Below are positions 1,367-61,331 of a stretch of 64,000 bases of DNA, in pieces. The position numbers and the translations under genes were made by a program. Origin of the DNA: Psammoneis japonica. Taxonomy: Eukaryota. Positions within the stretch are counted from its first letter, which is position 1; every line of letters starts with the position of its first letter. The notes below the pieces were generated by a model. The model worked only from the letters and a program-made list of their open reading frames with translations. It ran no database searches and was not told the origin of the DNA. The DNA is taken from assembly GCA_008632985.1 (NCBI GenBank), contig QPGO01000039.1, forward strand, positions 310,001-374,000, given 5' to 3'.

Positions 1367-1368
<2 letters not shown>

Positions 1369-1416: not shown

Positions 1417-1420
<4 letters not shown>

Positions 1421-6539: not shown

Positions 6540-7620
6540 GGGAGAGGGACAGACACGGACACTGAGTCATGTAGGTGGGGAAGGGTGTGGGTTTGAGAGC
6601 GGGGTGAGTGAGTTGAGAATGTAGTTTCGTAGAACAGCGTGTGAGTTGGTCAGCAAGGGATTTGGTGATGGCAAAGCTGATGCTTTGTAGACCCCATTGT
6701 GCAGGAGTTGTGGTGTGGTGGGTGAGTCCAAAGCGCGCAGATGAGGTGCTTTTCCATGCAGCACCAGCGGTGGCAGGCAAAATGGCGGAGGGTGATGAGT
6801 GGGCACAGGTGCGGGCAGCATGGGCAGCGGGATGTTGGAAGCAGGATTCAGTGGTCCAGGGAGGGGCAGGTGGGGCAGCAATGGGATGATCTTGGTCTGC
6901 ACCACAAAGAGGAGGCAGTGGGCGAAGCAGCTGGGAGCGCCGAAGTGATCGATGGTGAAGGGTGTGAGACAGATGCCGGCGTCATTGAGAGCAGATGTAA
7001 GGGTTGCTTCACATTGGGTTTGAATTTCCACCTGGTGCTCAAATGGTGTGCTTCGGCACATGGATTGGGAGTTGGGGCAGGCAAGCCAGGAGCTGCTGGA
7101 AGTGGAGGAGGTTTGGGTGCAGAGTGGTGAAGTGGCAGAGGCAGCTGGGTTAAGTTGGACGCCAATGTCAGTGGGGTGCTTGAGGGGAGAGTGAGGGATG
7201 AGGTCAGCTGGTTTGTGGTGGACTGCAGATGAGTCGGTGCAGATGCCGGAGAGCGGGGTGAGAGTTTGGAGCGTGGCGAACAAGCCAGCATGGATGGCAT
7301 TGGACGTTGCAGTTTTGCATCCAAGGGAGTGGCATCAGAAGGCATGGTTGCTGCAGGGATCAGCTGTGCCATTGCAAGAGAGGTGCGTGACAGAAGCAAG
7401 GCACTCCAGTGAGATGGGAAGTCGAGGTTTGCGTTGGAGCATGAGGCGGAAGTGGTGTGAGGCCAGGCATTGGTGTGGCAAAGAGCGGGAGAGCAAGTGC
7501 AGGGAGAGGCTGGTGAATGGGGAAAGAAGAGAAAGGAGTGCAAGGGTGACGTGTGCTGGGCCATGTTGTCAGAGGTGTTGCAGTTGGCGTTGAAAGTGAG
7601 CACAGCAGAATCCTTTGTGA
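6540..7620 (-). mobile_element. Decayed 3' end of a non-LTR retrotransposon (CRE-like: CCHC finger plus restriction-like endonuclease)
   Basis: Minus strand reads SCNGTADPCSNHAF*CHSLGCKTATSNAIHAGLF (family-like DPYGDHAFRC...KT...N.IRD), followed by LKHPTDI (RPxD) and LTPFTIDHFG. Confidence 0.65.
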
Positions 7621-7728
7621 TGTTGTTTGGGGGGGGGGTTTAGACAGCATGAGCAATGAGAGCAAGAACAATGCAAGAATGCTCATGTGACATGCAGACA
7701 GTGCCACCAATGCCACCACCTCAAACTG

Positions 7729-9248
7729 TCAAGTGCGTGCATGGGCACCACGCCCGAATCCTGCTCCATGTCCACCACCTTTGTCATTTTTGTAACCATG
7801 TCCGCGTCCAGCACTTGCCGACTGAGATTGCTGCTGCTGAGGTTGTTGCGTTGTTTCTTTCGAGCCTTGTCGTGTGGCTGCCACATGCCGTCCCAAAGGG
7901 TCGCCACGTCCCTGTTGTCCTTGACCTCCACGCACGGCCATGTGCTCACGGGCTTGCACAATGCATGCTTGGCTGCCGTCAAACCACAACTGTTGCCACT
8001 CATCTGGGGAAAACGCACAAGTGGGATTGGACGCATCTGCGCCATTGATCACAGCACCTCGTCCACCAAAGTGTCCCCTGCCGCAGCCTTGCTTGTTCCT
8101 GCCTCGACCGCCACGTGGCCCTCTGCCACCACCTCTGGCAAAGCCTCTCCCTTGGCACCCATCACGGGTTGTCTCCAAAATCTTGTGCTTTGAGTGATGC
8201 TGAGCTTCCAATTGAGCCGCTCCATGCAAATGAGAGACTTCTGAAGAAAAGAGTGCACAAGCGCCAGTGAAATCACGGGGAAACTGCTGACTGATCACAG
8301 GGGTGCAGGCTTGCAGTCTGACGTTGTCGGTTTTGATTCCTCGCAAGAGAATGTCAACCTTCTGTCTTTCTGTTTTATGCTCATCCTTGTCTTTGTTCAA
8401 GGTCGCAAATGCAGTGGTGAGTTTTGCCGTGTAACGCTCGAATGACAAACACCATTCATTCTTGCAATGCAACGTCCGAATGTTTGCCAGTGCTGGCTGC
8501 GCACGCTTGCTGAGTTCTCCCTGTCCATTGCAATGGTTTGCCCACGCCCAAAATGCATCTCTCCCATTCTCAGTGTTGTCACATTGTTCGATCCAAGTCC
8601 ATCCTTCCGCATTTACAAGGCATCCTTTTTCAACAAATGACAAACTGTGCGATTGTCCGAATCGAAAGCTGTCCCATTCAGGCTCAACTGACACATGCGC
8701 TCTTTGACATCATCAATGAATTCAGCCAGAGCTGCTGCCGGTCTTACAACATGTCGCAACAGTTCCTTCAACACACCAATCTTCTGTGACAAGAGATTCA
8801 AGAGTGCATCTTCCATCACATCATGGTCTTCTGACTTAAATGCCGGCAAGGAACTGGCCGTTTCATCCAATTCAACCATGTCCTTTTTGATCCACTTTTG
8901 TTGATGAGCTTCAACCAACGCTGCCTGGTTGAACAGTGTGGCATCAAGCAAGAGATTGTGCTTCTGACGATCATGAAGCCACCACACCAGGGCTTGCAAA
9001 TTCTTAATCTGAACAGCACCAAGCACTAATCTGCCATCGTTGACACTGTGCCTTCCAGCTCTGTTTGCCATTTCTTCCACATCTGAGTCACCTTCCACAA
9101 CTGCAATGTCCTCTAAAGTCACAAACCCATCAAAGAACACCAAATGAGCTCTTGCATTGACGTTGGCAATGCCACATGTCTGCAATGCGTTGTCCACATC
9201 TACAGCCAGTGCTGGGGCTGCTGAAGCTTGGGCTGGTGCTGCTGCCAT
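7729..9248 (-). mobile_element. Decayed Ty1/copia (diatom CoDi-like) gag, frameshifted near 8620-8690; no pol seen
   Basis: Motifs LGAVQIKNLQALVWWLHDRQK, NGRDAFWAWANHCNGQGELSKR and LHCKNEWCLSFERY, then an RGG-rich tail. Confidence 0.8.
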
Positions 9249-10586
9249 GCTCTCTTGTGAAACAAAGGCAACAAAATGATGTCCATGATGGACACACAAG
9301 GTGACTGTGAGACTCGCACAATGGGTGTGGATGGGAGACTGAACGCTCTCCGAGCACCGTGGTGACAGGTCCACGCAGTCAACCGGCAATGGGAGGCCAC
9401 CCCATGCTGTTTTGTCTGATTGAGCACGCGCTCTGGGCTTGCCACCCCACACTGCTACGTTCAACACCTGTTGCACATGTTGAAAACCAATGTGTTTGCA
9501 AGTGTGATGCCATTTCAACCGCAGCGATTCTCGTCGTTCGTGTTCATGTCTTTTTCCGTGTCATTGCGCAACGCACACACGTGGAACCCGGTGCTCTTTC
9601 CATGGCTGACACCCATGTGGTTCTGCACAGCAATGAACGGCTGCGCGTGTCGTTTCAATTGATGCTCACATGATTGTAGTGCCATTTCTTTCTGTCACTC
9701 AGTTGCACGACAATGGCTCTGACAAAGCGAGTGAATGGCGATGTGGTCCATGGCCCATGCTGGGGCACCCTCACTTCGTCTCTAAAGAACAACGACTGCT
9801 CGCACCGTTGATGCAACACTTCTCTCTAGATCATGCACGCTGACCCATGCGCACGAACCTGCACACTGACCAGGACAGACCACTCCATCAAGATTTGCTC
9901 GCACGCGCGCCTGGAAACATGTGCCCCCTCTCCATCTCTCTCCCCTCCTCCTTTTCCTCTTCCTTTTTTGATGAACTCGGAGTGGCCACAAACATGGCAT
10001 TGCCATTTGCAATTCAAGCATTGCAGTGGCTACGCGGGGCATTTGGGATGCAGAGTTCGACACGATGCCCAGCGATTTCTGGAATTGGAGGAGTTAGGAT
10101 CACACAACAAAGCAGCTTCCACACACGTGCAAGACATGGAATGCAACACGCCGACTGCCTGTTTTTTGTTTGCCAACCAGAGTTTGGTCTACAATCATTT
10201 GAAGGACGAATGGCACCAGTCACAAATGAAATGTCATTCTGGTCGCAGAACACGACTGCCAACCAAGACACATCGAAATTGTCAGCTGCGGGGTTCGAAA
10301 CAAATGGCCGCCGCTTGAAACGCAAATCGGACAGCAATGAACTAGTTCACAATCTAGACACAACAACTTTTGACAATGTCCATTCACTGCTTTGCTGTTG
10401 CTGTTGCTGCTTTTGTCAACGAGACCTCCGTTGACTGTGTGTCAGCCTTGGAAAGGCATCTCAACTGGTTGTTGAGACCAATCTGCGCATCGGCATCAAG
10501 CTTCTAGCCAATTTTGCCACTGCGGATGCCATTTTGAAGCAAACCCGGGAAAGCAGTGAGTTTGAAACACACTTCTTGTCTTCACC

Positions 10587-12150
10587 ATGGTGCCAACTCC
10601 ACCTCCTTCACCCACAAGCACAGGGACCAGTGCCACGACGCCGAATGCCAAGCTCATGCAAGACCTGCTGTCAGTGTTCTCTGAAATGGGAATCAAGAAC
10701 AAACTGCTGCCAACTCCTTCTCTTCAAGGCAGAACCCACAAGTCCCATGGAGCGCACATTGGTGGATCAAAACTGGACAACAACTGTGACCAGACCAAGT
10801 TGCGCACTCACCGATTCGCACCCCAGCGTCATCACCCAAAGGCTCTCGATTGGATCGAGCGCTCTCTCTGAGATCAACAAGCTTCTGCGATGACCCACAA
10901 GTTCAACGGAAGACTTGAGATTTCAAATGGTCCTGTCAACAAGCTAGATGAGGATGATTTTGTCAAAACCATTCAAGATTCAGTTGAGGCTCATGGACAG
11001 GAGACATTCTGCCACGTCAAGAAATTGGAAGGAACGGTCGCCTGCATTTTTGACAATCTCCACGAGTTCTCTGTGACGGATCTACGAGATGAATGCTCCA
11101 CCCGTTCAGCAGCTGCAGACAACTCAGCCTACGATGACATTGAGAACAATGATGTTGGGCTCTCTCAGCTGCTGGCATTGTCCAGAATCACAAATTCCTT
11201 CCGTGAGAAAATCCACACCGAGTTCAACCACTTGAAAGACTTCAAGAATTGTCCAGGATCCGTGCTCTTCATGATGGCCCTGGGTGCGTGCAATGCTGGT
11301 GCTCTAGCTGATGTTGAGAGTGCTGAAAAGGACCTGGAAGAGCCTGCTCTGTCTGAACATTCTGGTGAAGATTGCACCGACCTTGCTGCCGAAGCCCTCC
11401 GCATTGTCAAGATTGTGCAGACAGACTGCACCGTGCTGACCAATGCGGGCTTCAAGATTTTGCACAAGGCATCCAACATGTCCTCAGAACACTTCAACTG
11501 CTCAGTGCACAACAAGATTGACAAAGTCAAAAGGATGGAGCGCAAGTGTTGCTTGAAGGACCCTGCCACAATCAATTCCGACAGTTCCTGCATGATGCAC
11601 GGACTGGTCGGCATCATCGCGTGGATCCAAGAGGAGCACAACAAGCTTGCAAAGGATGGAGAGTGGCCTGCTTTGGCTGCAAAACTTCCTGAAAGCAACC
11701 TGTTGTCGGCTGATGAGCCTGCCAAGATGAAAAGTTGTTGGGGATGTGGTCTCAAGGGATGCACCAGGAAGACCTGCCCCAAGTGCAGCAAGAACCCACC
11801 TCCGGCAAACTCAGAGCACAAATCCTTGGGACCGTCAGACCCCTCGAACCAAAAGAGAGGCCTGCCACATGGCGCACCAAGTTTGATGGGGATGCTGCTG
11901 CAGATCTGAAGGTGCGCCCATGCAAATGGTGTGCGAAATGCAGAGTCAAGGGCTCGGACAAACCCAGACTCTGCCAGCGCCATTCCACCGTGGAGCATGC
12001 GGATGATTTCAAGCACCCTCCAAAGAAAAAACTGTCCAGAAACTTGTCTTCCGTTGAGGACCCTGATCATGGTGCACCCATGGGTCCCCCAGCACAGACA
12101 GACAAGGAGCCCTCCAATGAGAAATTGGACCCAAACGAGTTGATTTTTAT
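10587..12150 (+). mobile_element. Second decayed copia-like gag with zinc knuckle
   Basis: ORFs 10587-10871, 10890-11909 and 11735+ give PGSVLFMMAL, LSEHSGED (LxxYPGED-like), DGEWPAL and knuckle CWGCGLKGCTRKTC, then KWCAKC...HSTVEH. Confidence 0.7.
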
Positions 12151-12299
12151 GGTCAAGTGTCTGAGGATGGCCCATTGCTTCACACGCAAGTTGAAAATCC
12201 ACTTGATGCATTGCAAAAGGGATGTTTTGGCAACATCAGGAAGGAAGGGTGCTGCAAGGGGTCCTGTGCCATGTCGCATCTGCAAAGCTCTCAACATGG

Positions 12300-13845
12300 T
12301 TGTCTGACAATCCATTGTTTTAATCATGGACATCCAAAAGAGTTCAAAACAAATTGTCTGCAGAGGAAAAGAAGTTGCCATTTTAACATTGCCAAGGTGT
12401 GCTCCATTTGGGCGTGATGTTGAATGACAAAAACTGCTCAGGTTCAAAAGAATGACAAAGATGTGAAGCACAAGTGACCCCACTTTCATCAACAATTTTG
12501 ACACAAGTGAGTCTCCAACAGTGTTGACATTCTCCATGCACAGAGTTGTGTTAAAAATTGAAATGAGCATCATCTTTTTTTTGCTTGTTTGCCCCACCTT
12601 TTTCAGTGGTGTCCTCAATCTCATCATCAAGAACAAGGTGCATGTCTGATTGTTGTGTTTCTTGCTGAGAGGCACCGCTGCAGCAAAGATGCCAAAGCAC
12701 CCTTTTTTTTCTTTCTTTCTTGTTTTTTTCTGTCACACAATGGGGCTGCTTTTTGACACATTGTTGTTTGGATCATTGCCATGCAGCAGCAATTGGAGAG
12801 TGCTGGAGAGTCATGTGTTGTTCCTTGCCAACAGCCAACCTTCTTTGCTCTGCTTCTGCTTCTTGTCACCTGCGCAACTGGGAAGAAATGGATCTCTTTG
12901 TCAGTTGCCCAGCATTTGAGAACAACAAAGATGCATCTTGACCAGTGCATCACATCATCATCTGACACATTCCAGCTGCTCTGGGTGGGACCTTGCACTG
13001 CTGAACTGTGACATCAACGGCAGTTTTTTGGATTGCGCCATGTGTTGTGCATGCACATTTCTACAACCTGCTGATTGCTGTGGACAGAACAAACAGGTGT
13101 CAGACACCTGTTTCCTGGCATCACTGGTGGCATGCAATTGTCAGCATTGAACGCCACACAACAAGCACAGGGACAAAAGAAATTGACTCTTCTGTCACAT
13201 TTGTCTGTCTGTCACCCATTTGTCTCATGGAATCTACATGAAAGTTCCCACACTTTTCGGTCTGTCCATGCTTCATCTGACAACTGTTTGTTCCTCTGAC
13301 AACCATTTGTTCTGCATGTAGATTGTCACCTGGTTGAGTGCAGGGAAAAGGCAGTCACTTTGCTGCTCTTGTTCTCAACAAAATGCAAGTCCAAAGAAAA
13401 AGTTGCACCCCATTTCAAGCACCTCTGAACACCTTCTGACCTGTTGAACAATGCAGCTCTCATTTTGATCAACAGACATTTGTTTCTACATGACTTTTGT
13501 GGCATCTCCACCCACATCAGCACAGCAGGAGTTAAGTTTGTGTGATCCTTCTTTTGTCCACTGCTTGACAAATCATTGCAACACATGAGACATGCAATTT
13601 TGATGCCATCACAACCTCATCACTTGTGCTGCAAGTGAGCACTTTCTTCACAAGTTAGGAAATGCATGCAATGCAGCCACAAAAAATCTTTGAATGCAGC
13701 GAAAATGCCAGTCAAAGCATGCCCAGCAAAAGATGCACTTCCTTGCCACATTTTGCTGAAATGTGAGTTTCACATCTGCATGAGTGTGGTCTTGCACTCC
13801 GGAGTGAGGTGGGGCACATTCTCCTTTTGTTCTGCCTTGCGTCAA
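12300..13845. mobile_element. Non-coding decayed repeat with relatives elsewhere in the window
   Basis: 12965-13065 aligns by eye with 49960-50055, and 13680-13835 aligns with 18075-18240. Confidence 0.7.
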
Positions 13846-13960
13846 GTACATACAGAGCAATCGAGAACTGTGAAAGAATTATAATGCACGTAACTCCATT
13901 TTCTTAGAGCTTACCGCGTACACTTTTGCATTAAAAAGGAGAGCTGTGTTTGCTTAGCAT

Positions 13961-15386
13961 TCATGACCTGTCATAGAAGGGGACGATGTGTTTGGCCACA
14001 AAGGATCGGACAATTTCGTACTGATCAGCTTCATCAACCATGTCTAGCAAGTCAAGCTCATTGGCAACATCGCGAGAGGAAGAAGGTGCAAAGAGACTCA
14101 AAAACTCTGCCGCCCCCATTGCTTGAGTGCTGTTCGCATTTCCACCACGGTTGTGGGATCCTTTGCCGACATCGGACTCCTTTCCATGCCCCGATACCGA
14201 CGGAGGGGGCTGAGACGACCCATGTTGTTCTTCTTGGTCATTGAAATTGCGGCCACGGTCACCACTGCGATCACCGCCTTCGTTGTCAAGGTCATGTCCG
14301 CGAGCATGTGATGTGCCAATCATTGCAGCTTGAACAGCTTCGAAGGGGAGTCGATCCACGAAAGTTAATGGGAGCGTTTCTGCTTGCGATTTGTCAAAAA
14401 AGATTATCCAGAATATACTTGGCAAGACCAGCCGATCCTTCTTCATCCTCTGGAAGCTTGAGTTTCCACAGAGAAACGGCCATACAATCATCGGCGTCTT
14501 TCGCAAACCAATAGAAAGTCCACGAGTCATTTAAATCGGTCAAGACGGTAACCACAGCGTGACGAGGATTTAAATAAGATGCCGCCACATGTTCACAAAT
14601 CGCCTGGGGGTTGTGGTTTTTACTTTTCATGTTCTTGGGCGTTTTTAATTCAAATAAGGCTTCCACGTTCTGCCGCAGTGTTTCGTTCTCAATATTCCGT
14701 ACTTGAGCAACAACAACGTCAGTAGTTCCACAGATTTTTCTTCGTTTTTCCTTGCCTGGAAGGTCAACAGAAAGGCTTGATCGATCCGGTTGTACGTCTG
14801 CCATCGAGTAATGTGATGGTAAGCGCACATTCGTAAGAAGATGGGCCATGTAAGCTCTCCGATTTCTCTCTGAGTCTTCGTCCCCCGCTAGCCATCGAAA
14901 GGGAGGCAATACAGGGGTATTCGCCGGTTTGACTGGCCAAGAAGCACCTTGTTCCCGGAGATGTAACATGTCAAGAATTTCTATCTTCACCGAATTGGTT
15001 ACCTGTGATAGCACGATGGTGTTTTTCTTGGCCATATAATCTCTTGCCATTTCTTTTAGGGCGGCCGCTGTTTCGCCCGACTGTTGCGGCGACGGTGGCT
15101 GGGCATGAATACGATATCGTGCCTGTTTCTTCCCAAGAACCGTCATGACGCCACCATTACAATGCAAGAGAGATCCGAATGTCGTGCGGAGCGGCTCAAA
15201 GCCCTCGGCGTCCACGGCGTGACAGAAATTCGTGTAGTCGTCCGACAATGCCGCCGTTGTTTGTCGCGCTCCTTCGCCAAACTTCACCAGCACGCTTACG
15301 CCGCTGCTTGTCATACGTACATCCACCACATGAAGTGTCTCCGAAGGTTCTTCTACTGACTGTGAAGTGTTTAATTTGGCTGCCAT
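13961..15386 (-). CDS. Crinkler (CRN)-like protein with PD-(D/E)xK-type nuclease domain; one frameshift at the A6 run 14396-14401
   Basis: GTTDVVV...ALFELKT...PQAICEHVAAS...VVTVLTDLNDSWTFYWF. Removing one base joins ...DNLF to DKSQAETLPLTFVDRLPF of ORF 13961-14530. Confidence 0.7.
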
Positions 15387-15540
15387 GGTTGGAATATGAC
15401 AGATGACAGATAGCTAACGTGAACATCAAACATCCACCACCGTTTTCTTCGGGCGCGCGTTGTTGCGGCTGCTATGCTGCTGCAAGGTCCGTGAACCCTA
15501 CTGTACTGTAACTCTACCATGGTGCTCTAGAGCTGCTAGA

Positions 15541-16529
15541 GTGTCCAGTCTACCGGGTTTTTTCCTCAATTGAGGCAGTGAAATTGTCCTCAATTGAGGC
15601 AGGCGAAACGTGCGGCAGACAGAAAATAACACGCTGTTTTGGCAAATGACACGAGAGACGACGATGTCAATTCTGTTTCGCAAAGCAGTCTCTACAATGA
15701 CAGTGAAGCTGCTTCAACACTCGCAACACCTTGCTTCACATGCTCAATGCGCTCGCCTGTGCCAAATTTGAATTTTGAGATCCACAAATTAGCCATGAAT
15801 GTGGGGTGCGAAAATGGCCCATCACATTCACAAAAACTCTTTTGACACACTTTCAACCACAGTGTTGTCTCATGTTCAATGCACATTAACGTACAATGTG
15901 CTTGGCATTGTTGACTGTTGTGTTTTGGTGACATAAATCGGCGCCAAGATTGTTGACGTCGGTCGTTTGTTGCGACTGCAATTCTGATGCTGCGATCGCA
16001 AAAAATGTTTCTTGAAAGCTCAGCACACAACAGCAAGCTTCTCTTGTCAATGGAGAAGACGTCCTGCTGTGCATGCAGTGCATGTTCACCATCGTTGCAG
16101 ACCCGAATTCTTGAAGGGCCGTTTTTTGTGTTTTGCGCTTGACCCCTCCTTTTTTCGACTGTCGCTTCGATTTCGAGACTCGGGCCACCATGACAAGGTC
16201 GTCCTTGTTGTGTTTCACAATTTTGTTTGCAGGTGCATTGTTGAGAGAGCACCAGAGTTTGTAAAACGGCGGTCGCATCATCGTCAAAGTCCCAAAAATT
16301 GCGTTTTTTCGGCGTGCGCGTGTTTCCATGCCCAAAAGGTGAAGAAGAATTTGTGTGGTCGAGTGCGAACAAAGAGCCGAATTGTTGCCCCAAGAGGTTC
16401 CAGAGCATGAAGAACAACACTGCAACGTCACTCAAGGGTTACGAACGATTTAGCAATTTAGCGAGTGGGGTTGAAAAACTGCCTCAATTGAGGTTTTTAC
16501 CTCAATTGAGGCACTTGGTAGAGCGACAC
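15541..16529. mobile_element. About 1 kb non-autonomous TIR element
   Basis: Ends GTGTCcagTCTACC and GGTAGAgcGACAC. Each end carries two CCTCAATTGAGG palindromes. TAGA flanks both sides (15537-15540 and 16530-16533). Confidence 0.75.
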
Positions 16530-16559
16530 TAGAGAGTGGGTTTGGGAAGGAAAAAGGAT

Positions 16560-17968: not shown

Positions 17969-18005
<37 letters not shown>

Positions 18006-18400
18006 CTGGCGGCCAAACAAAGTGATTGGCTCTGACAAAAGCGGCAGCTGCAAAACACATGCAATGTGGAAATGACAAATTTTTGAATGTGATGAAAATT
18101 CTGATCAAAGAACACCTGGCAAAAGATGCAGTCAGCACTGGCCACACTTTGCCAACATGTGAGTTTTACATCTGCGTGAGTGCTGCAGTCTCACACACTT
18201 AGAGGAGTGAGGTGGGGCACCACATTCTTCTTTCGTCCCACCATGCTCCCGATGACACCATTTGTGCTCCTGCTGTTACAACACATGTTGTTTCCAAATT
18301 CCTTGGTAGATCTCATTGGCAAATTGCCTCTCTGGTCACATGCTTGTGACAATGGATTTAGTCAGGATCATCTACAACAACTGCACTCTTTCAAGATAAA
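16560..18400. mobile_element. Unclassified decayed repeat block with an internal dispersed duplication
   Basis: TpA-depleted. 16930-17065 aligns with 18240-18380. (CT)n at about 17969-18007. Confidence 0.6.
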
Positions 18401-18406
18401 TTGGGG

Positions 18407-18604
18407 GAAGTCTCCAGCCAGCTGCTGGCTGAAAAAAGTCTGCTCATCAGTGCGTTTGGGGGTTTTGCCAGTGCAATTTTTATGTGCACAAAAGACGTCG
18501 AGTCTGTCCAGCGCTCGCCAAAACCCCCCAACGCACAGATTGACAGATTTTTTTGGTGCAAATTCTACATGAGATTCTTCAGCCAGCAGCTGGCTGGAGA
18601 CTTC
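18407..18604. mobile_element. MITE/foldback element of about 200 bp
   Basis: Perfect 27-bp inverted repeat GAAGTCTCCAGCCAGCTGCTGGCTGAA (18407-18433 and 18578-18604), plus a nested imperfect inverted repeat at about 18452-18474 and 18511-18534. Confidence 0.75.
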
Positions 18605-18773
18605 GGACATTTCTGCACATTCGATTCTTTCGATTACTTTGGCCCCAACATTATTTTTTTTGTTTCGCCTTTTGGATTTCGCTTTGCTTGCGCCGTTGCT
18701 TTTCACCGACAAACCTTTCCTTTCTCTGGCAACTAGAGACCGGCCCCAACAGCAAGGGATATTGACATTGAAG

Positions 18774-45640: not shown

Positions 45641-45649
45641 GTCAGCCAT

Positions 45650-46260: not shown

Positions 46261-46269
46261 CCAACTGAT

Positions 46270-52900: not shown

Positions 52901-54200
52901 ATGGCAGCCCACCTGGCCAACGCCAGAATTCTGCATCCACCTCTTCCTCGCCCATTTTAGAAGGACAGTTTGGCCCTCCTGTGCATGCCGGGTCATCCTT
53001 TTTTGGTGACGACGAGTCTTGCACATTTGATCCTCTGGAGGTGGATGACGACTCCAACGATTCTACCGACTCAGAAGAATCCGAACCTCCCATGTTGCAG
53101 GCCCAACAACAGGGACATCAATCTCTGTTGGAATCTCATGATGCAAATTTCAGAAGGTGCTGCCAAGTGATCGATTGCTCTTCCTCCGAAAAGCCCAACG
53201 TTGCCTGCGAGGACATGTCCGTTGCTTGTTGCGACGAAGACACAGCGCATTTTCGGAAAGCACTGTTTTCCATGCAGATGCAAAACAAGGACCCACCCTC
53301 CACTGCACTCAAAGCGAAGCATCCGGGTGAGCACTTTGTTCTTCCGGATCCTGACATGGCTTTGCTGTTTCCACGTGGGCACACTGGACTGGCTGCAATG
53401 ACCAAGCCTCGCTGCAATCCCCATGGTGAGGTTAGAATCGAGGACCAAACTTGCCATCTGTCGGAGGCCAATCGTCTTGGTGTCGATGTAAAAACTTTGG
53501 AACCGGGTCGACTGCATTCCGCAGTGTGTGGCGATCAATGAGTGGTGGCGGTTGTGGATGACGATGAATGGTGTTCTCGCATCCGCTCACCAGGTCTAAA
53601 GCAAGTTTGGCGCGATTTTTGCCTTTGAGAGAAACCCGGTTGTCCAGGTCGACATCAGGTGCCCGTCACCGGAGAACAAGGAAATTGTGAAGTGACGGTT
53701 GGATCCAGTGGCGACCACAATGGAGCAAGAGGAGAAAACGGCATGTCGGTGCCCCAGTTCAACAAAGGCACCAAGCGCTGTGCACCTCCAATGGCCAAGC
53801 CAGGCAAAGCGGATGCGTCAATGGCTTTTTTGTTGCACTTGCTCTTCAATGCGAACTTCGGCCATGGGCGTTCTTGGTTGTGGAAGCATCTCCGGCAAAC
53901 AAGGGAATTTGTGCTCATGTTGCCGCTCACGAACCAGAAGGAAAACATCTCCAGCATGAAAGCAGCAGCATTGGTGCGTTGAGAATCAGTTTCCGAGAAA
54001 GAGCCAACGGCGTGCGTGCGGTGTTTGTCAGAGGAAAAAGGATCCGTGCTGCCTCCTCTTGTTGTGACGAAAGATGTTCATGGATTTGTCGGGAACCATT
54101 TGAGCCAATCTCAATGTCAGGTTGCTGGCATCAATGGTTTGATTGTGAAATGCATTTGTCACCAGTGCTTGCGTTTGCAGTTCTGCCACTGTCTCCGGCA
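47000..54200. mobile_element. Decayed TE-associated accessory ORFs (minus about 47.1-48.95 kb, plus about 51.8-54.0 kb), possibly part of the adjacent MULE
   Basis: Broken protein-like frames almost devoid of Tyr; TpA-depleted; no domain recognised. Confidence 0.45.
52105..52520 (+). repeat. Tandem repeat, about 130-bp unit, just over 3 copies
   Basis: GCTCCCGCCATTTC recurs at about 52133, 52262 and 52393; encodes SRWSDxHAAPAISRHAAAASL. Confidence 0.9.
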
Positions 54201-54242
54201 ACAAAAACCATCATGTTGACATTCCACCGGTGTGCCAACCCT

Positions 54243-57125
54243 TTAAGCTCTTTCCTGCTGACGGTGACACTCACAAAGACACCCCGGAACTCTGTGTTGA
54301 TGAACAACACAAAGGCAACAACTTTCCCCGAGGTGGGCTTTGTTGGACCCAAACGCATTGCACGCCGGCAACGGCGGTGGAACGGTCCCGGGGAATGCTC
54401 CAGAATAATCTGGCGGGATGCCTTGCAGGACTGTCAGTTGAGACGGCATGGCCGATGCTTGAAACAAAGCAGAAGGAGCAGACGGAACAATGGGCCATCC
54501 CGCGGGGTCAATGACAGGTGGTCTAACTGCTGGAGTTGTTTGGCCGGCATGGCCACTCTTCGATGGTGCAGCCTTGCGTCGCTTCTTGGATGCTTCTTCT
54601 TCACAAGCTTTGATGTCAATCTTCATTTGGTTGACTCTCTCTTGGCGGGCACGTTTTCTGGTGGGAAGCTTGGTTGACCGTGATTGGATGACATCTGCAC
54701 ATTGCAGGATGGCGGCATGTGGGTCATTCATTTTTTTTTAGAACTCTTCGCAGTCTCCGATGAAGAGTTTTGCACCATCGGCCGACTCTGTCACTGTGAC
54801 TTTGCACAAACCATTGGTCAGTTTGTGCAGCAACTTGTGGTCTGAAGCCGATTCTCCATGGGGGAACCCTTTCAACGCATTGTGGCAGCCCATGATTCGA
54901 ATTTTGTCAATCATGTCCCCAACGCAGTCTTGAGTGTTGACGAGACACCCGCCTTCGTATGTTGCAATGTCGCGCTTTGCGTCTAGTCAGCCGATGTCTG
55001 CCAACACATCGTTGGTCAGCGCTTTGTCTTCGTCCAACATCCCACACCTCCGTGAAACAGTGGACCGCTCTAGTGTGTGGGTGTGGACCATGGACGGAAG
55101 GGACGCATTCAGCACACGGGAGAGGGTCACGCCAAGGGGAATCAAGCCATTGATGGACTGCGAACCCTTCATTTTGAGATTCATCCTGTGAAACATCATG
55201 TGTGAGCATGGACCCAAATGATCAAAACTGTCCTGGGCAACAACAACCAACTTGCCTCTCGTGAGAGTTGTTCTGTGGAACCAAACCGGGCTCCCCGAAA
55301 GACGTGTAGCGCCAGTTCGCGAAGTCGTCGTCGTTGATGTGCTGTTCTGCAAATGCATCCGCCAATTTGGTTTCGCCTGCCTTCCTCCATGACTCGAGCA
55401 CCATGCCAGACATGGCATGGAACAACTCTGCAGTTTTGCACCGGTGGAGCATCCTCACATCATGGATGGCAACTCTGGACAGGAAAGTCGTGTCCTTCAT
55501 GCACTTCTGGCATTGTCCGTTTCCTTGCCTCATGAAATCTGTGCAGAACTTTTGGAGGATGTGAGGACAGCATGTGCCTCTGGGATTGTCAGGGTGCAAC
55601 AGCTCAAAAGCACTCGAGAATGCTTTCGAGTGATCCGAGCAAAGTCCGCCTGCAAACTCCAAGTCGGTTGTCCCAAACAAGTCCGACGCCGCCTTTTCAA
55701 AGCACAGAACATCAACACGGCACCTTCTTCGTGCTCTCCGGTGGTCAAGCAGCAGCAAATTGGCTTGAACGTGCTGGAGCAGCAATGCTTTCCAGTTTTC
55801 TCTCGTTTTAAAAAGTCACTCACGCCGAATGCGATGAGAACAAAGTCATTGCAGACGACTCCATGAGTTCCATCTATTGTGCCAACCACACGGTGCTCTG
55901 GGTTGCGACAATCACAGATGTTTCACAACAGACCTGGGGAGGAGAAAACAACTGTGTTGTCCCTCGCTCCCAGGAAGGGACCCTTCGGACCTTTTCTTTT
56001 TCAGAACCTGGCTTCTGACTTGCCTTGTAGTTCGGTCAACCGTTGCTTGACATTGGTTGGCAAGTCATCCGGCTGGAACAAGCAGAACATGTCTGTGTGT
56101 GGCACCCCATTTTTGCTGTGACGCTTGCCTCTTACACCCCTCGCGTGCAGCCATTTGGCCTTTTCTTTCATGTGGACTTCCAAAGAAACGGGTTCTGCAT
56201 CGAAACCCTCTGGAATCCGCAAACCCCATTTCCAACAGTGGGACACCAGGTCTTGTGTGTACGAAATTTTGGTGTTGCATGCTTTTCTGTCTTGAAGAGA
56301 GTTTTCGGACGCAGGGTGTGCCGTTGTTGCCACCTCTCTTCATCTCTGTGTGATGCAGTGGCAAATCTTGTTAGAAACCTTGTCGCGGAGATCCTGCATT
56401 TCGAACAACTCGGACACAGACGGATCTTCCGAATTTGAAAAGTGGTCCACAGTTTTTCTCTGCATGTCCTTCGGCGGTGCGTTCGGGTCGCTTTCCATCA
56501 TGAGCTGCACATGCAGTTTTGCCACAGGAGGAAGACCCCTCGAGCCTTTTGCGAGAATGTGCTCCCGCCAAGTTTGGGGTTTGTGACCATCATGGCCACA
56601 TGTCACTTCCAACTTGCAGGGGCCAGTCGACGGTGCCGCGACAATGTTTGCTTTGAAGCGACAACCCGGTTTTTTGCAGCTAAATTCGCTGACCACAGGA
56701 ACAGAAGGATCTTTCTTCTTCTTGAAATTGTTGTCATTGCGGTCGGCTTTAGCGTCTGGGCCTAGAAATTGTCGGGCGGCTGCGAAGGAGGGGAACAAAT
56801 CTCCAGGGTGCGAATCAAGAGCAGGGCTAGAATCGTCAGCTTCGGCCGAGCGAGATGCCATGTTGGTTGAAGAATTGGGCACGCCGCCCTTTTTGACTTG
56901 CTCCGCTTGAACAGCATTTGGAGCATGGGATGGTTCTTTTCCCGGCCAGATGCACTTGGCTCGCTGGGTCACAAAGTCGTCACAAACCGAGGCAACGAGT
57001 TGCTCGGCTTTGGGAGAGGGCATGAGCTCTGCAGCATCTGTGACAAAGTCGACTCTCTCCATGAAAGCCTTGGTTTGTGGAGAGAGAAAGTCTCTGGGCT
57101 CCGTGGCAGCCTTGCATGCCACCAC
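54243..57125 (-). mobile_element. Decayed Mutator/MULE transposase
   Basis: N-terminal GDLFPS...CKKPGCRF...HDGH finger; catalytic-domain motifs TIDGTHG, PICCCLTTGE, CSDHSKAFSSAF...P...TCCPH and PQNNSHER; frameshifts and stops. Confidence 0.8.
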
Positions 57126-59334
57126 ATTGAGGCAGGCATCCCGGTTGCCACCTTCTCGACCCTTGTGCCAGGAGATGGCAAGGGTGGCTTCCCACCATCA
57201 GGCATGAGGGACCAAAAGGAGCCGAGTGCAAACACAAACAAGAGACCATGCAACATGGTCGGCAACGAAGAATTGTGGGAAGGATGCTCAAAAGGTGAGG
57301 CCGAGGCCGATGCGGACAGGGAATCGGGGCCACGTTGGAGGGAAGTTTCCCGCCAAAACTGAAACTTCCCGCCAAAAAGCCAAATCCCACAGAAAACCGT
57401 TGTTGCAGCACATTTTCGACAGTTCAAACAATTGCTCTGTAGAGTCACTGTGTTTTGCATTGCACGGGAAATTTTGAATCGAGTCCGTTCGGGAAGATTG
57501 GATTTCTCCGTCCTCCTAAATGAGCACAGGAAATGAGCGATTGAAACATCCAAGTAGACTGCGATTTGGCGAGTGGCCATCAAAACAGAAATGCCAATGC
57601 TGTGGTTGTGCAAAACCGTAAATTGTCAGACGGGCGTCCAGCTCGTTCAAAAACAAGAGCCAGCAAACTCGGACCCTCACTCATTTCTCACACTTTCGAA
57701 AGAGTTGAACGCAAAGCCGAAGCTGCAGCACCATGACGACATTCAACAAGAGTGGAGCCAATGGCAAAAGGTGAGAAGGGAGTGGGGAAGAATCTGTTCA
57801 TTGTGTGATTTGCAAATGAAACGCTCACTCTGTCTTGCAACCATTTGCATCGAACAGACCCGCAGCCGCGTCAAAATGGAGGATTGTCAAGATCTCGAAA
57901 GTGCTGAAGCGACCCAGGCAAAGACCAAGAGCAGCCATGGCATTGAGACGTTTGTCGAGGGACTGTGCAGGATGGAAGGTGGTCGCAACGAAGAACAAGA
58001 AAGCTCTGGAGGTCTGAAGGCTGCATCGGCAGCGATCGGCTCAAGGTTTGATTTTGGGTCGCCGGCGAAGACATGGGTGCATCCAATGCAGACCGGGCAT
58101 TTGTGTGTGATGCATTGGCAGTTTGTGCTGGGCAAGGAGGAGGCTGGTGTGCTTGTGATTTCAGCGGCGACGGTTGTTGTTGTCATGGTGAGTGCATCAT
58201 TTTTGGTGGTTTCTGCGCGCAAAACAAACGTGACTTGTCTCACACTCATGCCTGGTTTCTTCTTGTCCAAATTTTCAAACATTTGTGCAATGACCAAAAT
58301 GACCCATTTTGTCTTAATTTGTTGATTGTTGTGACAGTTCACAGTTGCACAAATGACCATTTCGCAGTTGCACATGACGAGCTTTTCAGTTCATGTCGAC
58401 CGCCTCGACGAACAGAAACATTTGTTGAACAGCCCCCATTTTAAAACAAGACTGAACAATCATGTGCAACATGTCGTGCCAACCACGCAGGAGTGTGCAT
58501 TGTGCCGGCATGACAATTTGGTGCAAGCACGAACAGAATGACCATTTATTTCTTCTAAGAAACCAGACAAAATAAACTGAAAGGACTGAGGTGAGCGCGC
58601 AGCTACATGAAGTTTTGAGTCCCGCCTGCTCGGGACTCGTTGACGCTTCCATCTGGACACCGCGGTGCACCGTGGGAAAAAATGACGACGGGTGCGACAA
58701 TGGCATGCCGATGCAAGTGCCTTTTGCTGGCAACAATGTTCACTGCACCTGATCAGTGTTTACAAATCACCTGTGCCCAATTGGTCCACTTTGTGCATCA
58801 GGTGCAGCCGATTTGATGAAATGGCACCAAAACAAAGAACGATCCACGCAGCGTTCGATGACGCGACAAAGCCACGGAAAACGTCGTCTCTTGTTGGGCA
58901 TTGGGGCAGTGCTGATGCTTGGTTGACGGAATTGAAGCTGCAGGGTGTGGACAAAGATGTCACGGTGACACAAATGAACGAGAATTGAAAAAGCATCCCG
59001 AACACGGACCCCATCTAGAAGCTCCACGACCCGGTGCCAAGGTGCGTGTCGTGAGTGTGTCGAAAAGCGTCAAGATCAAGAACAAGAAAAGCAATCGCAT
59101 CTCCAATGCTTGGCATCTCTTTTACTTTGTGTCCCCGTGCAAATCGTTGGTCAAATTGCCATGTGAAATCCCGCGGCATTCTTGGCAGCAAACGCACAAT
59201 GCGAGAAAGATTGGTTCTGTGTCAGCACTCACACACGCCAACCCGGCAACACTGAGTTCCAAGCTGCCCAATCTCCTCAACACCAACCTGTGAATGGAGA
59301 AGAAGGGGGAGGAGACGACAGCACTCGTGTGCAC

Positions 59335-59550
59335 AAATCTGGCGTTGCCGAGTCCCAAGCTGCCAAATCTGCCCAAGCTGCTCAACACCAATCTGGCATT
59401 GCCGAGTCCCAAGCTGCCAAATCCACCCAATCTGCTCAACGCCAATCCGGCATTGCCAAGTCCCAAGCTGCCAAATCCACCCAATGTGCTCAATGCCAGT
59501 CCGGTGTTGCCGAGTCCCAAGCTGCCCAATCCACTCAATGCCAACCTGTG
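59335..59550. repeat. 54-bp tandem repeat, 4 copies plus a partial upstream copy
   Basis: GCCGAGTCCCAAGCTGCC at 59347, 59401, 59455 (variant) and 59509. Confidence 0.95.
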
Positions 59551-59980
59551 AACAAAGGAGGACAAGAAGAAGAAGAAGGAGGAGGTGAGAGCAACAAGTC
59601 ACACGGAAGGTTGATGCACTGGAGTCCGAGGTGGCTCGCAAGTTTCTCAACATTCCAAGCGGTCACGTCCGAAAAAAAAAAGTGCCACTTGCCATCAAGA
59701 GATTGCAAAACCACTGTCTGGCAAATTTTCTGACCCCAACCTCCTCCTGGATTCATGTCATCCATCCCGATTTTTGCCATGAGAAGTCGAGACGACAGAT
59801 TGGACATTGACGGCTAAAAATGCAGTGTGGAACCGCAACAAAGCGACAAGTGCCTAAAGCTTTCAATGACGAGCAAGAAAAATGCAAAACAGCAAGAAAG
59901 TGTTGCCAGTTGCTTGCGTTCAAGGTGAACATCATCATTTTTCACGGCAGCAAGTTGTGAGCTCCACAAATCACACACTG

Positions 59981-60585
59981 CTCAGAGCAGAAATCAGCAC
60001 AGACAAAACCAGTGGTGCTGCAGGAGCTGGTGCCGCTGTCGCAGGTTTCCTCCCACTTGACACCAAAGCACACTTTCTGACACATGACCCCTGTTTTCCA
60101 CTCTTCACGCGCGTGCGCAGAACTTGACGCTCATTCGCGTGGCTTCATTCCTCAACTCTCCCTCTTGACGGTGATTGTTTTTGTCACGCGGCGGGCCTCA
60201 TCATCACTGAACGAGGGGGTGCCCGGGTTGGCCGTTGTCCGGGGAGACATTGGGAGCAATGCTGCCATCAGGTCGGGTCATTGGGGTTGTCTGTCTGCCT
60301 GCCTGCATGAGTGTGGCATGCACGCGGTTCTCACGCGCCAATTTTGGCCATGAAGCAGACAGAAGGGCGACTCGAACCTGAGGCCGCAAAGGAAGGTTGG
60401 GCTCACAACCACTCAGAGCAGAAATCAGCATGGACAAAACCAGTGGTGCCACAGGAGCTGGTGCCGCTGTCGCGGGTTTCCTCCCACTTGACACCAGTGC
60501 ACACTTTCTGATGCACAGTCCCTGTTTTCTGCTCTTCACGCGCGTGCGCAGAACTTGACGCTCATTCACACGGCTTCATTCCTCA
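59981..60585. repeat. 174-bp direct repeat (59981-60154 and 60412-60585)
   Basis: Direct alignment by eye. Confidence 0.95.
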
Positions 60586-61331
60586 GCCACACTTGCCATT
60601 GTCTGCTGTCAAATGATGCACACCACAATCCATGTTGTCAATGAAATCGACCATCCGTTGCTTGGCTTGATCCAAAAGACAGTGCATGACACGCAACAGC
60701 CCCACCTCGATTGATGCAGAAATGTCGGCCGATGACAATGGCTCAAACATGTCGACATGAAACCAAGAGCCGGTGTTCCTCGTCAGGGCTTTGAACATGG
60801 TCGAAATGCTCCCTGCACAAGTGTGTGAAACGAGCGCATCGATTGCATCGCGACAGCACACGAAAAAGAGCAGCGGATGGTGATGCAGCTGCAAAATCCA
60901 TTTTTTTTTTTGCCTTTCGATTGAGCAATTGCCTTCAAACAAGCGATGAAAATAGTTTCCATGTGATGGCAGAAACCATTCTAAAGCACTGCTGTTGTTG
61001 AAAAGGTTTGGCAATAGCATGAAATGCCGTTCCGATTCTCATGGTGAGTGGCGTTCGGAGGGTGTGTGCGCATACGTGACTGAATGAGTCCCGCCTAACT
61101 TCATGCAGCCGCGCGCTCGCCTCAGCATAGCCCGCCCGGCTGGCGGTCGAGCGCGCGACGCGCGCATCTGGAGATAAAAGTACATGATACTATCACTGAT
61201 AGTCAATCTTGCCAATCGCTCACAGTGGAACAACGAACAACGGAACATCGCATCGACGAGAAAACGAGATGACCCTGTTATTTCATAAGAGAAGAGATTA
61301 TCTAAAAGACAGAGAGATATTGACGTTATCA

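Follow-up and report, generated by a model that had tools for sequence, protein, structure and literature searches.

TpA-depleted blocks and their contents

The window analysed in this study is a stretch of 64,000 nt from Psammoneis japonica; its host proteins are diatom-like. An earlier note on this DNA had described four nearly TpA-free blocks between normal genes, and re-segmentation reproduced them with limits within about 100-250 nt of the earlier ones. The blocks pooled comprise 30,773 nt and the remainder 33,227 nt. The features are as follows.

6650-13850: block 1, TpA-erased repeat DNA (O/E TA 0.09, CG 0.45, TG 1.71, CA 1.69)
7732-9560, minus strand: Copia-type (Ty1/copia) gag remnant in two overlapping frames (8616-9560 and 7732-8709), without downstream pol
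10746-12148, plus strand: second repeat-protein remnant with a Cys-rich knuckle; 281 relatives, without Pfam family
12964-13064: very high-copy motif of about 100 nt; a second copy at 49960-50054 is 77% alike
13851-15649, minus strand: island of unaffected DNA separating blocks 1 and 2, TA and CG normal; ORFs 13964-14530 and 14397-15413
15650-18400: block 2, TpA-depleted repeat DNA; alternative left limit 15900
34191-36604: block 3, intergenic insert (O/E TA 0.04, CG 0.17)
42330-61050: block 4, 18.7 kb, TpA-erased (O/E TA 0.09, CG 0.68)
43671-44017, plus strand: degraded host-gene duplicate, a copy of the 3' end of the neighbouring FAD-dependent oxidoreductase gene (38028-38389)
52050-52514: 132-nt tandem array in block 4, with units differing chiefly by transitions and CA/TG doublets

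The TpA depletion of the blocks is real and was confirmed by counting. The four blocks contained 171 TpA (O/E 0.09), against about 1,042 expected at the O/E of the DNA outside them (Poisson P ~5e-246), where 1,247 were found (O/E 0.54). CG was reduced in the blocks (1,091, O/E 0.57, versus 1,831, 0.98, outside), and TG and CA were raised (3,133, 1.62, and 3,101, 1.63, versus 2,452, 1.17, and 2,447, 1.19). The O/E of AA was 1.27 in the blocks and 1.14 outside. The hand counts of TA given previously were exact (0 in 7201-7620, 0 in 55321-55740, 2 in 34621-35040 and 16 in 37021-37440). Judged from the dinucleotide positions at their limits, the block edges are sharp, to less than about 100 nt; at the left edge of block 3, TA is spaced 3-10 nt apart until 34190, after which the nearest are at 34513 and 34706.

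The loss of CpG, partial to complete in the same blocks, is absent from the earlier note. It is patchy (O/E 0-0.9), whereas TpA loss is uniform across the blocks; at 47001-61000 TpA is nearly absent with CpG O/E at 0.6-0.9. In block 2, depletion is incomplete on the left (15650-16700; TA O/E 0.14-0.33, CG about 0.9), and the right part is nearly without TA and CG alike.

Long open frames persist in the TpA-erased blocks. Their ORFs of at least 100 aa (n=117) contained 0.16% Tyr, 5.3% Cys and 4.8% His, compared with 2.9%, 2.0% and 2.0% in the long host ORFs (n=13), which agrees with the earlier description of block ORFs as lacking Tyr and rich in Cys and His. A Pfam scan of 146 ORFs at E<=0.001 matched none in the blocks, all 11 family-bearing ORFs lying outside them; at E<=1, 44 block ORFs gave chance-level matches only. 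The scan found no Pfam family for the two island ORFs, no recognisable protein domain among the ORFs of block 4 and, as the earlier note had already remarked of a responsible enzyme, no deaminase or polymerase gene within the 64-kb window.

Three sequences in the blocks can be identified: the remnant of a Copia-type gag, a repeat protein of no known class and a fragment of a host gene. The earlier list of affected LTR, non-LTR and DNA elements was not reproduced, there being no Pfam match. The gag of block 1 has 170 relatives at E<=0.001, to which it shows 39-51% identity. An intact relative (L008) carries RVT_2 in its pol ORF, and matches in the window are confined to gag. Tyr accounts for 0 of 315 and 2 of 326 residues in the two gag frames, against a family median of 2.66%.

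Read support and copy number

Contigs from public run X1, which may be the source data of the assembly itself, were compared with blocks 1 and 2. Contigs of 800-2,900 nt matched without any difference at 11039-12070, 12043-12839, 13275-16205 and 16258-17671, at depths of 60-71, so that single-copy gene depth in the run (59.8) is equal to that of exact contigs over TA-free DNA. These contigs bear out the TA-free sequence of blocks 1 and 2, a check against reads that the earlier note had proposed. The run also contains 94% of sampled words from 34000-40000.

The read-derived contigs also reveal the repeated nature of the DNA in blocks 1 and 2. Paralogues of block 1 occur as many contig pieces of 80-99% likeness, with summed word depths of 100-10,366 against 59.8 for single-copy DNA; the highest value belongs to the bin of the high-copy motif (12671-13337), the paralogues of which retain TA and CG in their loose-end consensus. 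For block 2 the summed depth was 736-742 at 15339-16672 and 3,688 at 18007-18673. The TA-free stretch 16673-17339 reached only about 1.3 times single-copy depth at 80% likeness. The earlier proposal of a DNA-level A:T to G:C process aimed at repeats or heterochromatin is supported as to action on DNA in place, and the change is confined to repeated or inserted DNA with sharp edges; strict restriction to repeats is not supported, in view of stretches such as this last one. At 80% likeness or more, paralogues of some TA-free stretches are few, so the targeting rule may be repetition, foreignness or chromatin.

Ancestral state and direction of change

None of the 120 gag-family proteins listed was TA-free, nor was any of 30 metagenomic loci at which relatives of the gag in block 1 occur, so the process is not visibly common in the sampled environmental relatives. 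The 30 loci had TA O/E of 0.48-1.09 and CG of about 1.0-1.3, the 14 gag loci longer than 5 kb had TA O/E of 0.60-0.89, and Tyr made up at least 1.75% of every one of the 120 listed proteins. Intact relatives equally free of TpA, which the earlier note had named as an outcome that would speak against it, were thus not found, the metagenomic gag relatives standing at TA O/E 0.6-0.9.

Polarised changes were counted in two repeat-protein families and in one host-gene fragment of about 200 nt, the TA or CG context of each inferred change being defined by the present neighbouring base in the window. In the family-conserved columns of the two repeat proteins, 236 of 359 residues were kept overall but only 1 of 16 Tyr, most of which had become Cys or His. 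With another cut-off, Tyr was kept in 0 of 6 columns against 129 of 174 for other residues (P=4e-4), and for the second repeat protein in 1 of 9 against 84 of 132 (P=0.003); its nine conserved Tyr columns now hold His (3), Cys (3), Tyr (1), Ile (1) and Phe (1). Within TpA lay 23 of the 28 inferred single A:T to G:C changes (A to G 15, T to C 8), where chance, by arithmetic from dinucleotide counts, would place about 40%; the other 5 (A to G 1, T to C 4) lay outside TA. The absence of a TA excess over other A:T transitions, likewise named as adverse, was therefore not seen. Inferred single C:G to T:A changes fell within CpG in 23 of 30 cases (G to A 15, C to T 8) and elsewhere in 7. The conserved columns also hold 28 single transversions and 37 multi-step changes, and there has thus been much ordinary decay as well.

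The oxidoreductase fragment could be compared with the gene copy nearby. The 6 TA of the gene copy have become CA (3), TT (1) and GA (1) in the block copy or stayed TA (1), and its 11 CG have become CA (4), TG (4), AG (2) and GG (1), none being kept. Taken with the relatives and the Tyr columns, these comparisons show that the loss of TpA arose by mutation of ancestral TA-containing sequence and is not native composition.

Products of both TA to TG and TA to CA are present, and therefore both strands have been mutated. This had been claimed before and agrees with the polarised counts and with a runs test, in which TG and CA, near equal in total, were interleaved (z -1.7 to +1.8). Among repeat pairs inside the window, tandem-array units included, CA/TG doublets made up 43 of 72 adjacent double mismatches, and against paralogue contigs TG to CA doublets occurred at 6757/6758 and 18570/18571. 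Since repeat copies differ by such doublets, the DNA copies were mutated in place.

Candidate process and known systems

The blocks are best explained as stretches of a diatom nuclear genome made up of old DNA, either repeated or inserted: remnants of transposons, short repeats in high copy number and a fragment captured from a host gene. Once these copies were in place, a TpA-specific process acting on DNA would have turned A:T into G:C on either strand, yielding TpG or CpA; some 87% of the original TpA has been lost (O/E 0.09 versus about 0.7 in intact relatives), and neighbouring single-copy genes were spared at edges sharper than about 100 nt. We hold with good confidence to this at the level of pattern: the direction of change, its TpA context, its occurrence on both strands and on DNA copies already in place, and its restriction to the blocks within the 64-kb window. 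That the activity is targeted and defence-like rather than a passive bias seems to us somewhat the better reading. As to the enzyme, adenine deamination in 5'-TA-3' by an ADAT2/TadA-type deaminase is our leading guess, a tentative one. The natural tRNA target of these enzymes, A34, is always preceded by U33, and they deaminate A after U or T, the context seen here. To our knowledge no organism has been proven to use ADAT2/ADAT3 or TadA naturally for the mutation of genomic DNA, and the window holds no such gene. Activity of amphioxus ADAT2 on DNA has been reported (PMC10354150).

A second, partly independent process would have removed CpG by C to T change and added to the TG and CA pool, most simply through deamination of 5-methylcytosine in CpG-methylated transposons. 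Such decay accounts for the lost CpG and for some of the added TG and CA, but cannot remove TpA. In diatoms, DNMT5a is reported to methylate transposons at CpG, and CG methylation to depend on it (PMC9998398).

With the same pattern and targeting, the chemistry may differ: thymine of TpA could be modified by an enzyme in silenced DNA, for instance through oxidation by a TET/JBP-type dioxygenase, which yields 5-hydroxymethyl- or 5-formyluracil, and could then mispair with G at replication and give T to C, without an adenine deaminase. A preference for TpA and TpC is reported for dinoflagellate 5-hydroxymethyluracil, and 5-formyluracil causes mutation towards G:C; we know of no modified thymine in diatoms. 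TpA being self-complementary, the 15 A to G and 8 T to C changes and the equality of TG and CA fit T as well as A, and deamination of A and a mispairing modification of the paired T are indistinguishable from sequence alone. We nevertheless regard thymine modification as unlikely: nothing in the window bears on modified thymine, ADAT/TadA action on A after U yields the TpA rule without extra assumption, and the authors of a preprint on Bigelowiella natans (Mettrop et al., bioRxiv 10.64898/2026.01.13.699255) prefer adenine deamination and find an ADAT2 homologue with DNA-editing residues.

It is improbable that no dedicated system exists and that, in blocks lying in heterochromatin, ordinary error-prone repair (such as Pol eta-type synthesis at WA motifs) or a replication bias slowly eroded TpA over very long times. 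The blocks are old, as the divergence of the gag remnant and the many transversions and multi-step changes indicate, and CpG decay in the same DNA points to long exposure. Yet AA, the other WA motif, is undepleted, A:T to G:C change outside TpA is rare and the edges are too sharp. Among the passive changes that methylated DNA undergoes, CpG decay is usually the quickest, and at 47001-61000 TpA loss outran it. The rate described for B. natans is about 1,000 times background, and on in some lines only.

Editing of element RNA (ADAR/ADAT-type A-to-I) or of cDNA, followed by integration of edited copies, is very improbable. According to the preprint, the A that ADAR-type enzymes edit is preferably one that follows U, and one affected element is a retrotransposon; but edits of sense RNA give one-strand A to G, and the strand symmetry here, with Tyr to Cys and Tyr to His alike on the gag sense strand, contradicts such an origin. 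Tandem-array units differing by doublets and a host-gene fragment are also affected, and the targets described in B. natans are single-copy integrated DNA viruses.

A sequencing or assembly artefact, in which a modified base at TpA is misread and the true genome still holds TA, hardly merits belief, even though run X1 may underlie the assembly and its library type is unrecorded: a base read as G on both strands of palindromic TA would give all-TG reads from one strand and all-CA reads from the other, and two skewed half-depth haplotypes, which the exact full-depth contigs and the site-by-site interleaving of TG and CA contradict. Frameshifts, transversions and indels, as genuine decay leaves them, are present in the blocks too. 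Elements natively TA-poor through selection or foreign origin, for which composition alone speaks, can be given almost no credence, as this is contradicted by TA-containing relatives with normal Tyr content, by invariant family Tyr turned to Cys or His in broken frames and by the same state in unrelated sequences, including the host-gene fragment.

RIP of Neurospora and other fungi likewise acts in place on duplicated or invading DNA: both strands acquire dense transitions within rather well-defined limits, which ruins coding capacity and spares adjoining genes. It is a C to T process acting mostly at CpA and creating TpA, so its chemistry and footprint are opposite; here TpA is destroyed and CpA and TpG are made. 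RIP also generates stop codons, the present process almost none. The C to T direction is stated in the preprint as well (10.64898/2026.01.13.699255). Deaminase restriction (ADAR hyperediting of double-stranded RNA, APOBEC3 on cDNA) is similar in that it inactivates foreign or selfish nucleic acid by mutation, but acts on RNA or single-stranded cDNA with one-strand bias, in contrast to strand-symmetric marks on resident DNA copies.

The kind of mutation proposed here is already known from B. natans, which weakens the novelty implied earlier: the preprint describes TpA-specific A:T to G:C hypermutation, likens it to RIP as a defence and names an ADAT2-type deaminase as candidate. Of 231 new mutations that arose there in two regions of integrated viral DNA, 230 were A to G or T to C, all on TpA according to the authors, and the signature arose de novo in mutation-accumulation lines. 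Shared features are changes to TpG and CpA only, on both strands, in localised regions on a normal background, and a footprint left over the long term, in which clustered 1-kb windows combine low Rho TpA and high Rho CpA+TpG; TpA-depleted genes are enriched in reverse transcriptase and DDE domains. The cases differ in that B. natans is a chlorarachniophyte (Rhizaria) and the present organism a diatom (stramenopile); the rate in B. natans was measured on two inserts, one a single-copy giant virus and the other a virophage, and the targets here are multi-copy remnants of transposons, short repeats and a piece of a host gene; Rho TpA of the giant-virus region is 0.45, against a TA O/E of 0.09 over 30.8 kb here; CpG is lost here and mentioned 0 times in the available preprint text; and the mutation rate was measured there, the present pattern being read from a genome sequence. 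What is new in this study is that the lineage is a diatom, that the change is near saturation, that transposons are targets and that CpG has decayed as well. Almost half of the window would be old repeated DNA bearing a TA-to-TG/CA pattern so far reported in one unrelated alga only.

TpA depletion in four blocks

Dinucleotides were counted in 500-nt steps over the 64-kb window, and blocks were set by segmentation together with the positions of TA. Two states were found, with 7-43 TA per 500 nt in host-gene DNA versus 0-8 in four blocks, the limits of which fall within about 100-250 nt of those proposed in the earlier note.

Block 1: ~6650-13850
Block 2: ~15650/15900-18400
Block 3: 34191-36604
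Block 4: ~42330-61050

Table. Dinucleotide counts, with observed/expected ratios (O/E) in brackets
Blocks pooled, 30,773 nt: TA 171 (0.09); CG 1,091 (0.57); TG 3,133 (1.62); CA 3,101 (1.63)
Outside blocks, 33,227 nt: TA 1,247 (0.54); CG 1,831 (0.98); TG 2,452 (1.17); CA 2,447 (1.19)

At the TA O/E of the DNA outside, the blocks should contain 1,042 TA (Poisson P ~5e-246). GC is 0.50 in the blocks versus 0.475 outside, and block edges are sharp, TA occurring every few bases until 34190 and next at 34513. Relative to the DNA outside, and after strand symmetrisation, depletion follows the order TAT (0.03), TAC (0.12), TAA (0.23) and TAG (0.26), with TAT/ATA the most depleted TpA context and TAG/CTA the least. 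Four TA counts made by hand in the earlier note (0, 0, 2 and 16) were reproduced exactly by recount, and the block ORFs are, as it described, poor in Tyr (0.16% of residues vs 2.9% in long host ORFs) and rich in Cys (5.3% vs 2.0%) and His (4.8% vs 2.0%). The loss of TpA is real and strong, and the earlier reading of it is correct in outline.

By the genetic code, Tyr codons become Cys or His codons while TAA and TAG vanish, and since almost no new stops arise, long false ORFs persist in the blocks. The long overlapping both-strand ORFs at 51000-52530, a strongly T-rich and C-rich stretch with A-T skew down to -0.6 and tandem arrays of 50 nt and 132 nt, are almost certainly spurious, a product of the lost TAA and TAG stops.

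Logan contigs of three runs from one sample were compared with positions 6001-26000 at a likeness of at least 80%. Contigs without a single difference cover 11039-12070, 12043-12839, 13275-16205 and 16258-17671 at a word depth of 60-71, and a single 8,034-nt contig spans the host genes at 18575-26000 at depth 59.8, which the exact contigs equal. The bases are thus borne out at single-copy depth, as a check of the assembly and not by an independent sample, since the public run X1, of unrecorded library type, may be the assembly's own source. A modified base misread on both strands of the palindromic TA predicts all-TG and all-CA versions, each at half depth; this is contradicted, as TG and CA alternate site by site inside full-depth contigs (runs test z -1.7 to +1.8).

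The left part of block 2 (15650-16700) is a repeat of summed depth ~740 whose CpG is near normal and whose TpA is only partly depleted (TA O/E 0.14-0.33). It may be a younger insertion, in which the TpA process could be observed under way. Between blocks 1 and 2 lies an island (13851-15649, minus strand) of normal TA and CpG, with ORFs of 189 and 339 aa without Pfam family; its summed depth of 78-122 suggests a few paralogues, so that a multi-copy sequence seems to have escaped the TpA process.

Block content and direction of change

The 11 ORFs that could be given a Pfam family are all located outside the blocks, with normal TA, and the long host ORFs run without interruption. The best matches of the Spb1 C-terminal ORF share 51-62% identity with it, and those that are named are all diatoms (Attheya, Eucampia, Nitzschia, Odontella, Discostella, Seminavis, Chaetoceros and Stephanodiscus). 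The FtsJ and Spb1 C-terminal domains of a single rRNA methyltransferase gene are split between two plus-strand ORFs ~400 nt apart, 30787-31665 and 32073-33956. As both domains sit in the same ~1,000-aa protein in relatives, an intron or a change of frame is implied in the window.

Profile scans found no Pfam family at E<=0.001 in any block ORF, and only chance-level matches at E<=1 in 44 block ORFs. No deaminase was found among the ORFs of the 64-kb window by the Pfam scan, no RNA family or tRNA by the Rfam and tRNA scans, and local tandem arrays only by the tandem-repeat scan. Blocks 1 and 2 are repeated DNA, as their summed depth ranges from 75 to 10,366 against 59.8 in host genes. On the 20 kb compared, 1,064 contig pieces of X1 were placed, 165 at >=99% likeness, 157 at 95-99%, 311 at 90-95% and 431 below 90%. 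A few block stretches are almost without a close paralogue, for example 16673-17339 (depth 75 vs 59.8). The following could be named or assigned to a family:

8616-9560 and 7732-8709 (overlapping frames), minus strand: Copia-type gag remnant, the two together matching one ~500-aa family
10872-11906, plus strand: second repeat-protein ORF, from a family of 281 proteins without Pfam domain
43671-44017: degraded host-gene copy, its source the 3' end of the FAD-oxidoreductase gene at 38028-38389

The gag family of block 1 has 170 members at E<=0.001. On metagenomic contigs its relatives lie upstream of a pol ORF that carries RVT_2, the whole element measuring about 6.6-6.9 kb, and the family is thereby identified as a Ty1/copia-type retrotransposon gag. 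Of such an element the window retains the gag alone, a tblastn search with 63 ORFs of at least 200 aa from 30 metagenomic loci having found no pol remnant in the window. For the second family, none of 12 long relatives had a Pfam family and no relative was found in viral_contigs. Beyond these two and the host-gene fragment, the statement in the earlier note that LTR, non-LTR and DNA elements are all affected was not reproduced. For the ORF at 56343-57197 (minus strand), the ESM Atlas gave low recognition, unnamed clusters and faint FLYWCH/GCM hints, which were set aside.

A ~100-nt motif found at 12964-13064 (block 1) and 49960-50054 (block 4) has a summed word depth of ~10,366 in X1, versus 60 for single-copy DNA; the tRNA and Rfam searches gave no match for it, and a SINE-like element or a transposon terminus are candidates. 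Nine of the metagenomic contigs with Copia-type gag (L001, L004-L006, L008, L014, L023, L024 and L027; 6.6-7.2 kb) each end in a 99-208 nt copy of their own start, 5 of the 9 overlaps being 100% identical. The probable cause is assembly wrap-around over LTRs or tandem copies, the alternative being circular forms.

The relatives of the block-1 gag have ordinary TpA. The 30 metagenomic loci have TA O/E of 0.48-1.09 (0.60-0.89 in the 14 loci >5 kb) and CG of ~1.0-1.3, and none of them is TA-free; the refuting outcome named in the earlier note, that intact copies would be equally devoid of TpA, is therefore not seen. Among the matches listed (n=120), all gag proteins have 1.75-3.6% Tyr (median 2.66%) and none is Tyr-free, and the two window gag frames have Tyr at 0 of 315 and 2 of 326 residues. 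In family-conserved columns of the two repeat proteins, 236 of 359 residues are retained in the window, against only 1 of 16 Tyr, with mostly Cys or His instead. With other cut-offs, conserved Tyr of the gag became Cys (4), His (1) and Leu (1) (Fisher P 4e-4), and conserved Tyr columns of the second family held His (3), Cys (3), Tyr (1), Ile (1) and Phe (1) (Fisher P 0.003).

Table. Conserved-column changes explained by one transition
A>G: in TpA 15, elsewhere 1
T>C: in TpA 8, elsewhere 4
G>A: in CpG 15, elsewhere 4
C>T: in CpG 8, elsewhere 3

The same columns also hold 28 single transversions and 37 multi-step changes. Of the single A:T>G:C changes inferred, 23 of 28 lie in TpA, against ~40% expected from the blocks' own dinucleotide make-up; TpA is thus in excess over other A:T transitions, and this comparison does not refute the earlier note. 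In the host-gene fragment, the 6 TA of the gene read CA (3), TT (1), GA (1) and TA (1) in the block copy, in which 0 of 11 CG were kept.

Strands, CpG loss and mechanism

The totals of TG (3,133) and CA (3,101) in the blocks are balanced, also locally and without runs (z -1.7 to +1.8), and the sense strand carries changes of both kinds, A>G (15 in TA) and T>C (8 in TA), seen at Tyr codons as Tyr>Cys and Tyr>His respectively. Both strands were therefore mutated, site by site, in agreement with the earlier note. By the runs test, TG and CA do not form the strand-coordinated stretches that processive single-strand deamination would leave. Across 19 within-window repeat pairs, which comprise 1,658 aligned positions and in part overlap inside tandem arrays, 43 of 72 adjacent double mismatches are CA-versus-TG doublets, the next class having 5. 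Comparison with paralogue contigs shows such doublets too, at 6757/6758 and 18570/18571, within the 40 differences listed of 1,101. A doublet of this kind results when a single ancestral TA (or CG) is turned into TG in the first copy and into CA in the second. Separate DNA copies, units of tandem arrays included, were hence mutated after duplication.

CpG loss, on which the earlier note was silent, is patchy where TpA loss is uniform: CpG O/E is 0.0-0.2 at 12001-13500, 17001-18000, 34501-36500 and 42501-44000. Across 47001-61000 it is still 0.6-0.9 while TpA is nearly absent, and the loss of TpA therefore appears to be a process separate from, and faster than, CpG decay. L020, a 1,047-nt metagenome contig with a gag relative, has CpG O/E 0.26, TG/CA 1.55 and a TA O/E only mildly low (0.48), so that CpG decay takes place in at least one further host in which TpA has not been erased.

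The DNA of the blocks, repeated or inserted, carries an in-place, TpA-specific A:T>G:C change on both strands and, in the same DNA, a CpG-specific C:G>T:A change. For the former, the proposed chemistry is adenine deamination, which may be due to an enzyme of the ADAT2/TadA type; the tRNA target of these enzymes, A34, always follows U33. The sequence fits a mispairing modification carried by the thymine of TpA just as well, since both chemistries would leave the same mutated pair with the same flanking bases and are thus inseparable by sequence. Deamination of 5mC, whose signature of CpG loss with TpG/CpA gain in repeats is present (pooled CG O/E 0.57; 23 of 30 inferred single C:G>T:A changes in CpG), would account for the CpG part only; diatom transposons are described as CG-methylated through DNMT5a (PMC9998398). 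Since separate DNA copies were mutated, a one-strand origin by RNA or cDNA editing is ruled out. ADAR- or APOBEC3-type editing of retroelements at these stages gives a one-strand bias relative to the transcript of the element; here TG and CA are symmetric and interleaved, non-retroelement sequence is affected, and copies differ by CA/TG doublets.

Comparison with Bigelowiella natans and RIP

In mutation-accumulation lines of B. natans, two integrated viral regions mutated at ~6e-7 per site per generation, and 230 of 231 changes in them were A>G or T>C, all on TpA according to the authors (Mettrop et al., bioRxiv 10.64898/2026.01.13.699255). The hypermutation occurred in some lines only and was episodic, at ~1,000 times background; reverse-transcriptase and DDE domains were enriched among TpA-depleted genes, an ADAT2 homologue with DNA-editing residues was proposed as the enzyme, and RIP was given as an analogy (10.64898/2026.01.13.699255). 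That preprint mentions neither diatoms nor CpG. When its thresholds were applied to 1-kb windows (10.64898/2026.01.13.699255), 26 of 64 passed, in consecutive runs of 8, 3, 5, 4 and 3, besides a pair at 16001-17001 and an isolated window at 54001.

As in B. natans, A:T>G:C change at TpA gives TpG/CpA, both strands are mutated, and foreign or selfish DNA is affected while host genes are normal, as judged for blocks 1 and 2 by the Copia-type gag, the second repeat protein and the high-copy repeats, and for host genes by the normal TA of the 11 ORFs with Pfam families. The window additionally has CpG transitions and ordinary decay, and what it shows is a sequence footprint; in B. natans the mutation rate was measured directly. 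Fungal RIP changes C:G to T:A, mostly at CpA, and so creates TpA and AT-rich DNA; the chemistry of the window is opposite, with TpA destroyed, CpA/TpG enriched and GC raised (0.50 vs 0.475). Almost no new stops arise and long false ORFs persist, unlike after RIP. A trigger by duplication is a feature of RIP; blocks 1 and 2 are repeated, yet 16673-17339 has a depth of 75 vs 59.8, and the B. natans targets include a single-copy insert.

The window is a second, phylogenetically distant instance of the phenomenon described in 2026 and is not categorically new; what is newly seen is its near-completion on transposon remnants, combined with CpG decay. No report of TpA loss in diatoms, and none of such hypermutation besides the B. 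natans preprint, was found within the literature searched, and a later preprint, 10.64898/2026.07.24.739820, mentions neither TpA nor hypermutation. Were the same dinucleotide rule to hold in another, distant lineage, the B. natans case would prove no peculiarity of one alga, and a shared or convergent enzyme would be suggested. To our knowledge, no transition-based defence running opposite to RIP was known before the B. natans preprint of 2026.

In genomes of this kind, the origin of TpA-erased DNA is masked, its ORFs being without Pfam family and the loss of TAA and TAG producing long false open reading frames, and gene and repeat predictions need correction for TpA erasure. Diatoms are abundant and ecologically important, and some species are genetically transformable; if the footprint were found in a tractable diatom, the search for the enzyme would be directly testable. 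With it, a natural enzyme that deaminates genomic adenine could be identified for the first time, which would be relevant to base-editing research.

We consider it possible, at somewhat below an even chance, that diatoms have an active and targeted genome defence, homologous to the system of B. natans, which recognises repeated or invading DNA and acts on it in place, turning each TpA into TpG or CpA. Such a defence would replace all Tyr codons and remove TATA-type and AATAAA-type signals as well as TAA and TAG stops, while creating no stops. A natural DNA adenine deaminase, or a thymine modifier, would then still have to be found, and TpA-directed DNA editing would be an ancient defence of stramenopile-alveolate-rhizarian eukaryotes.
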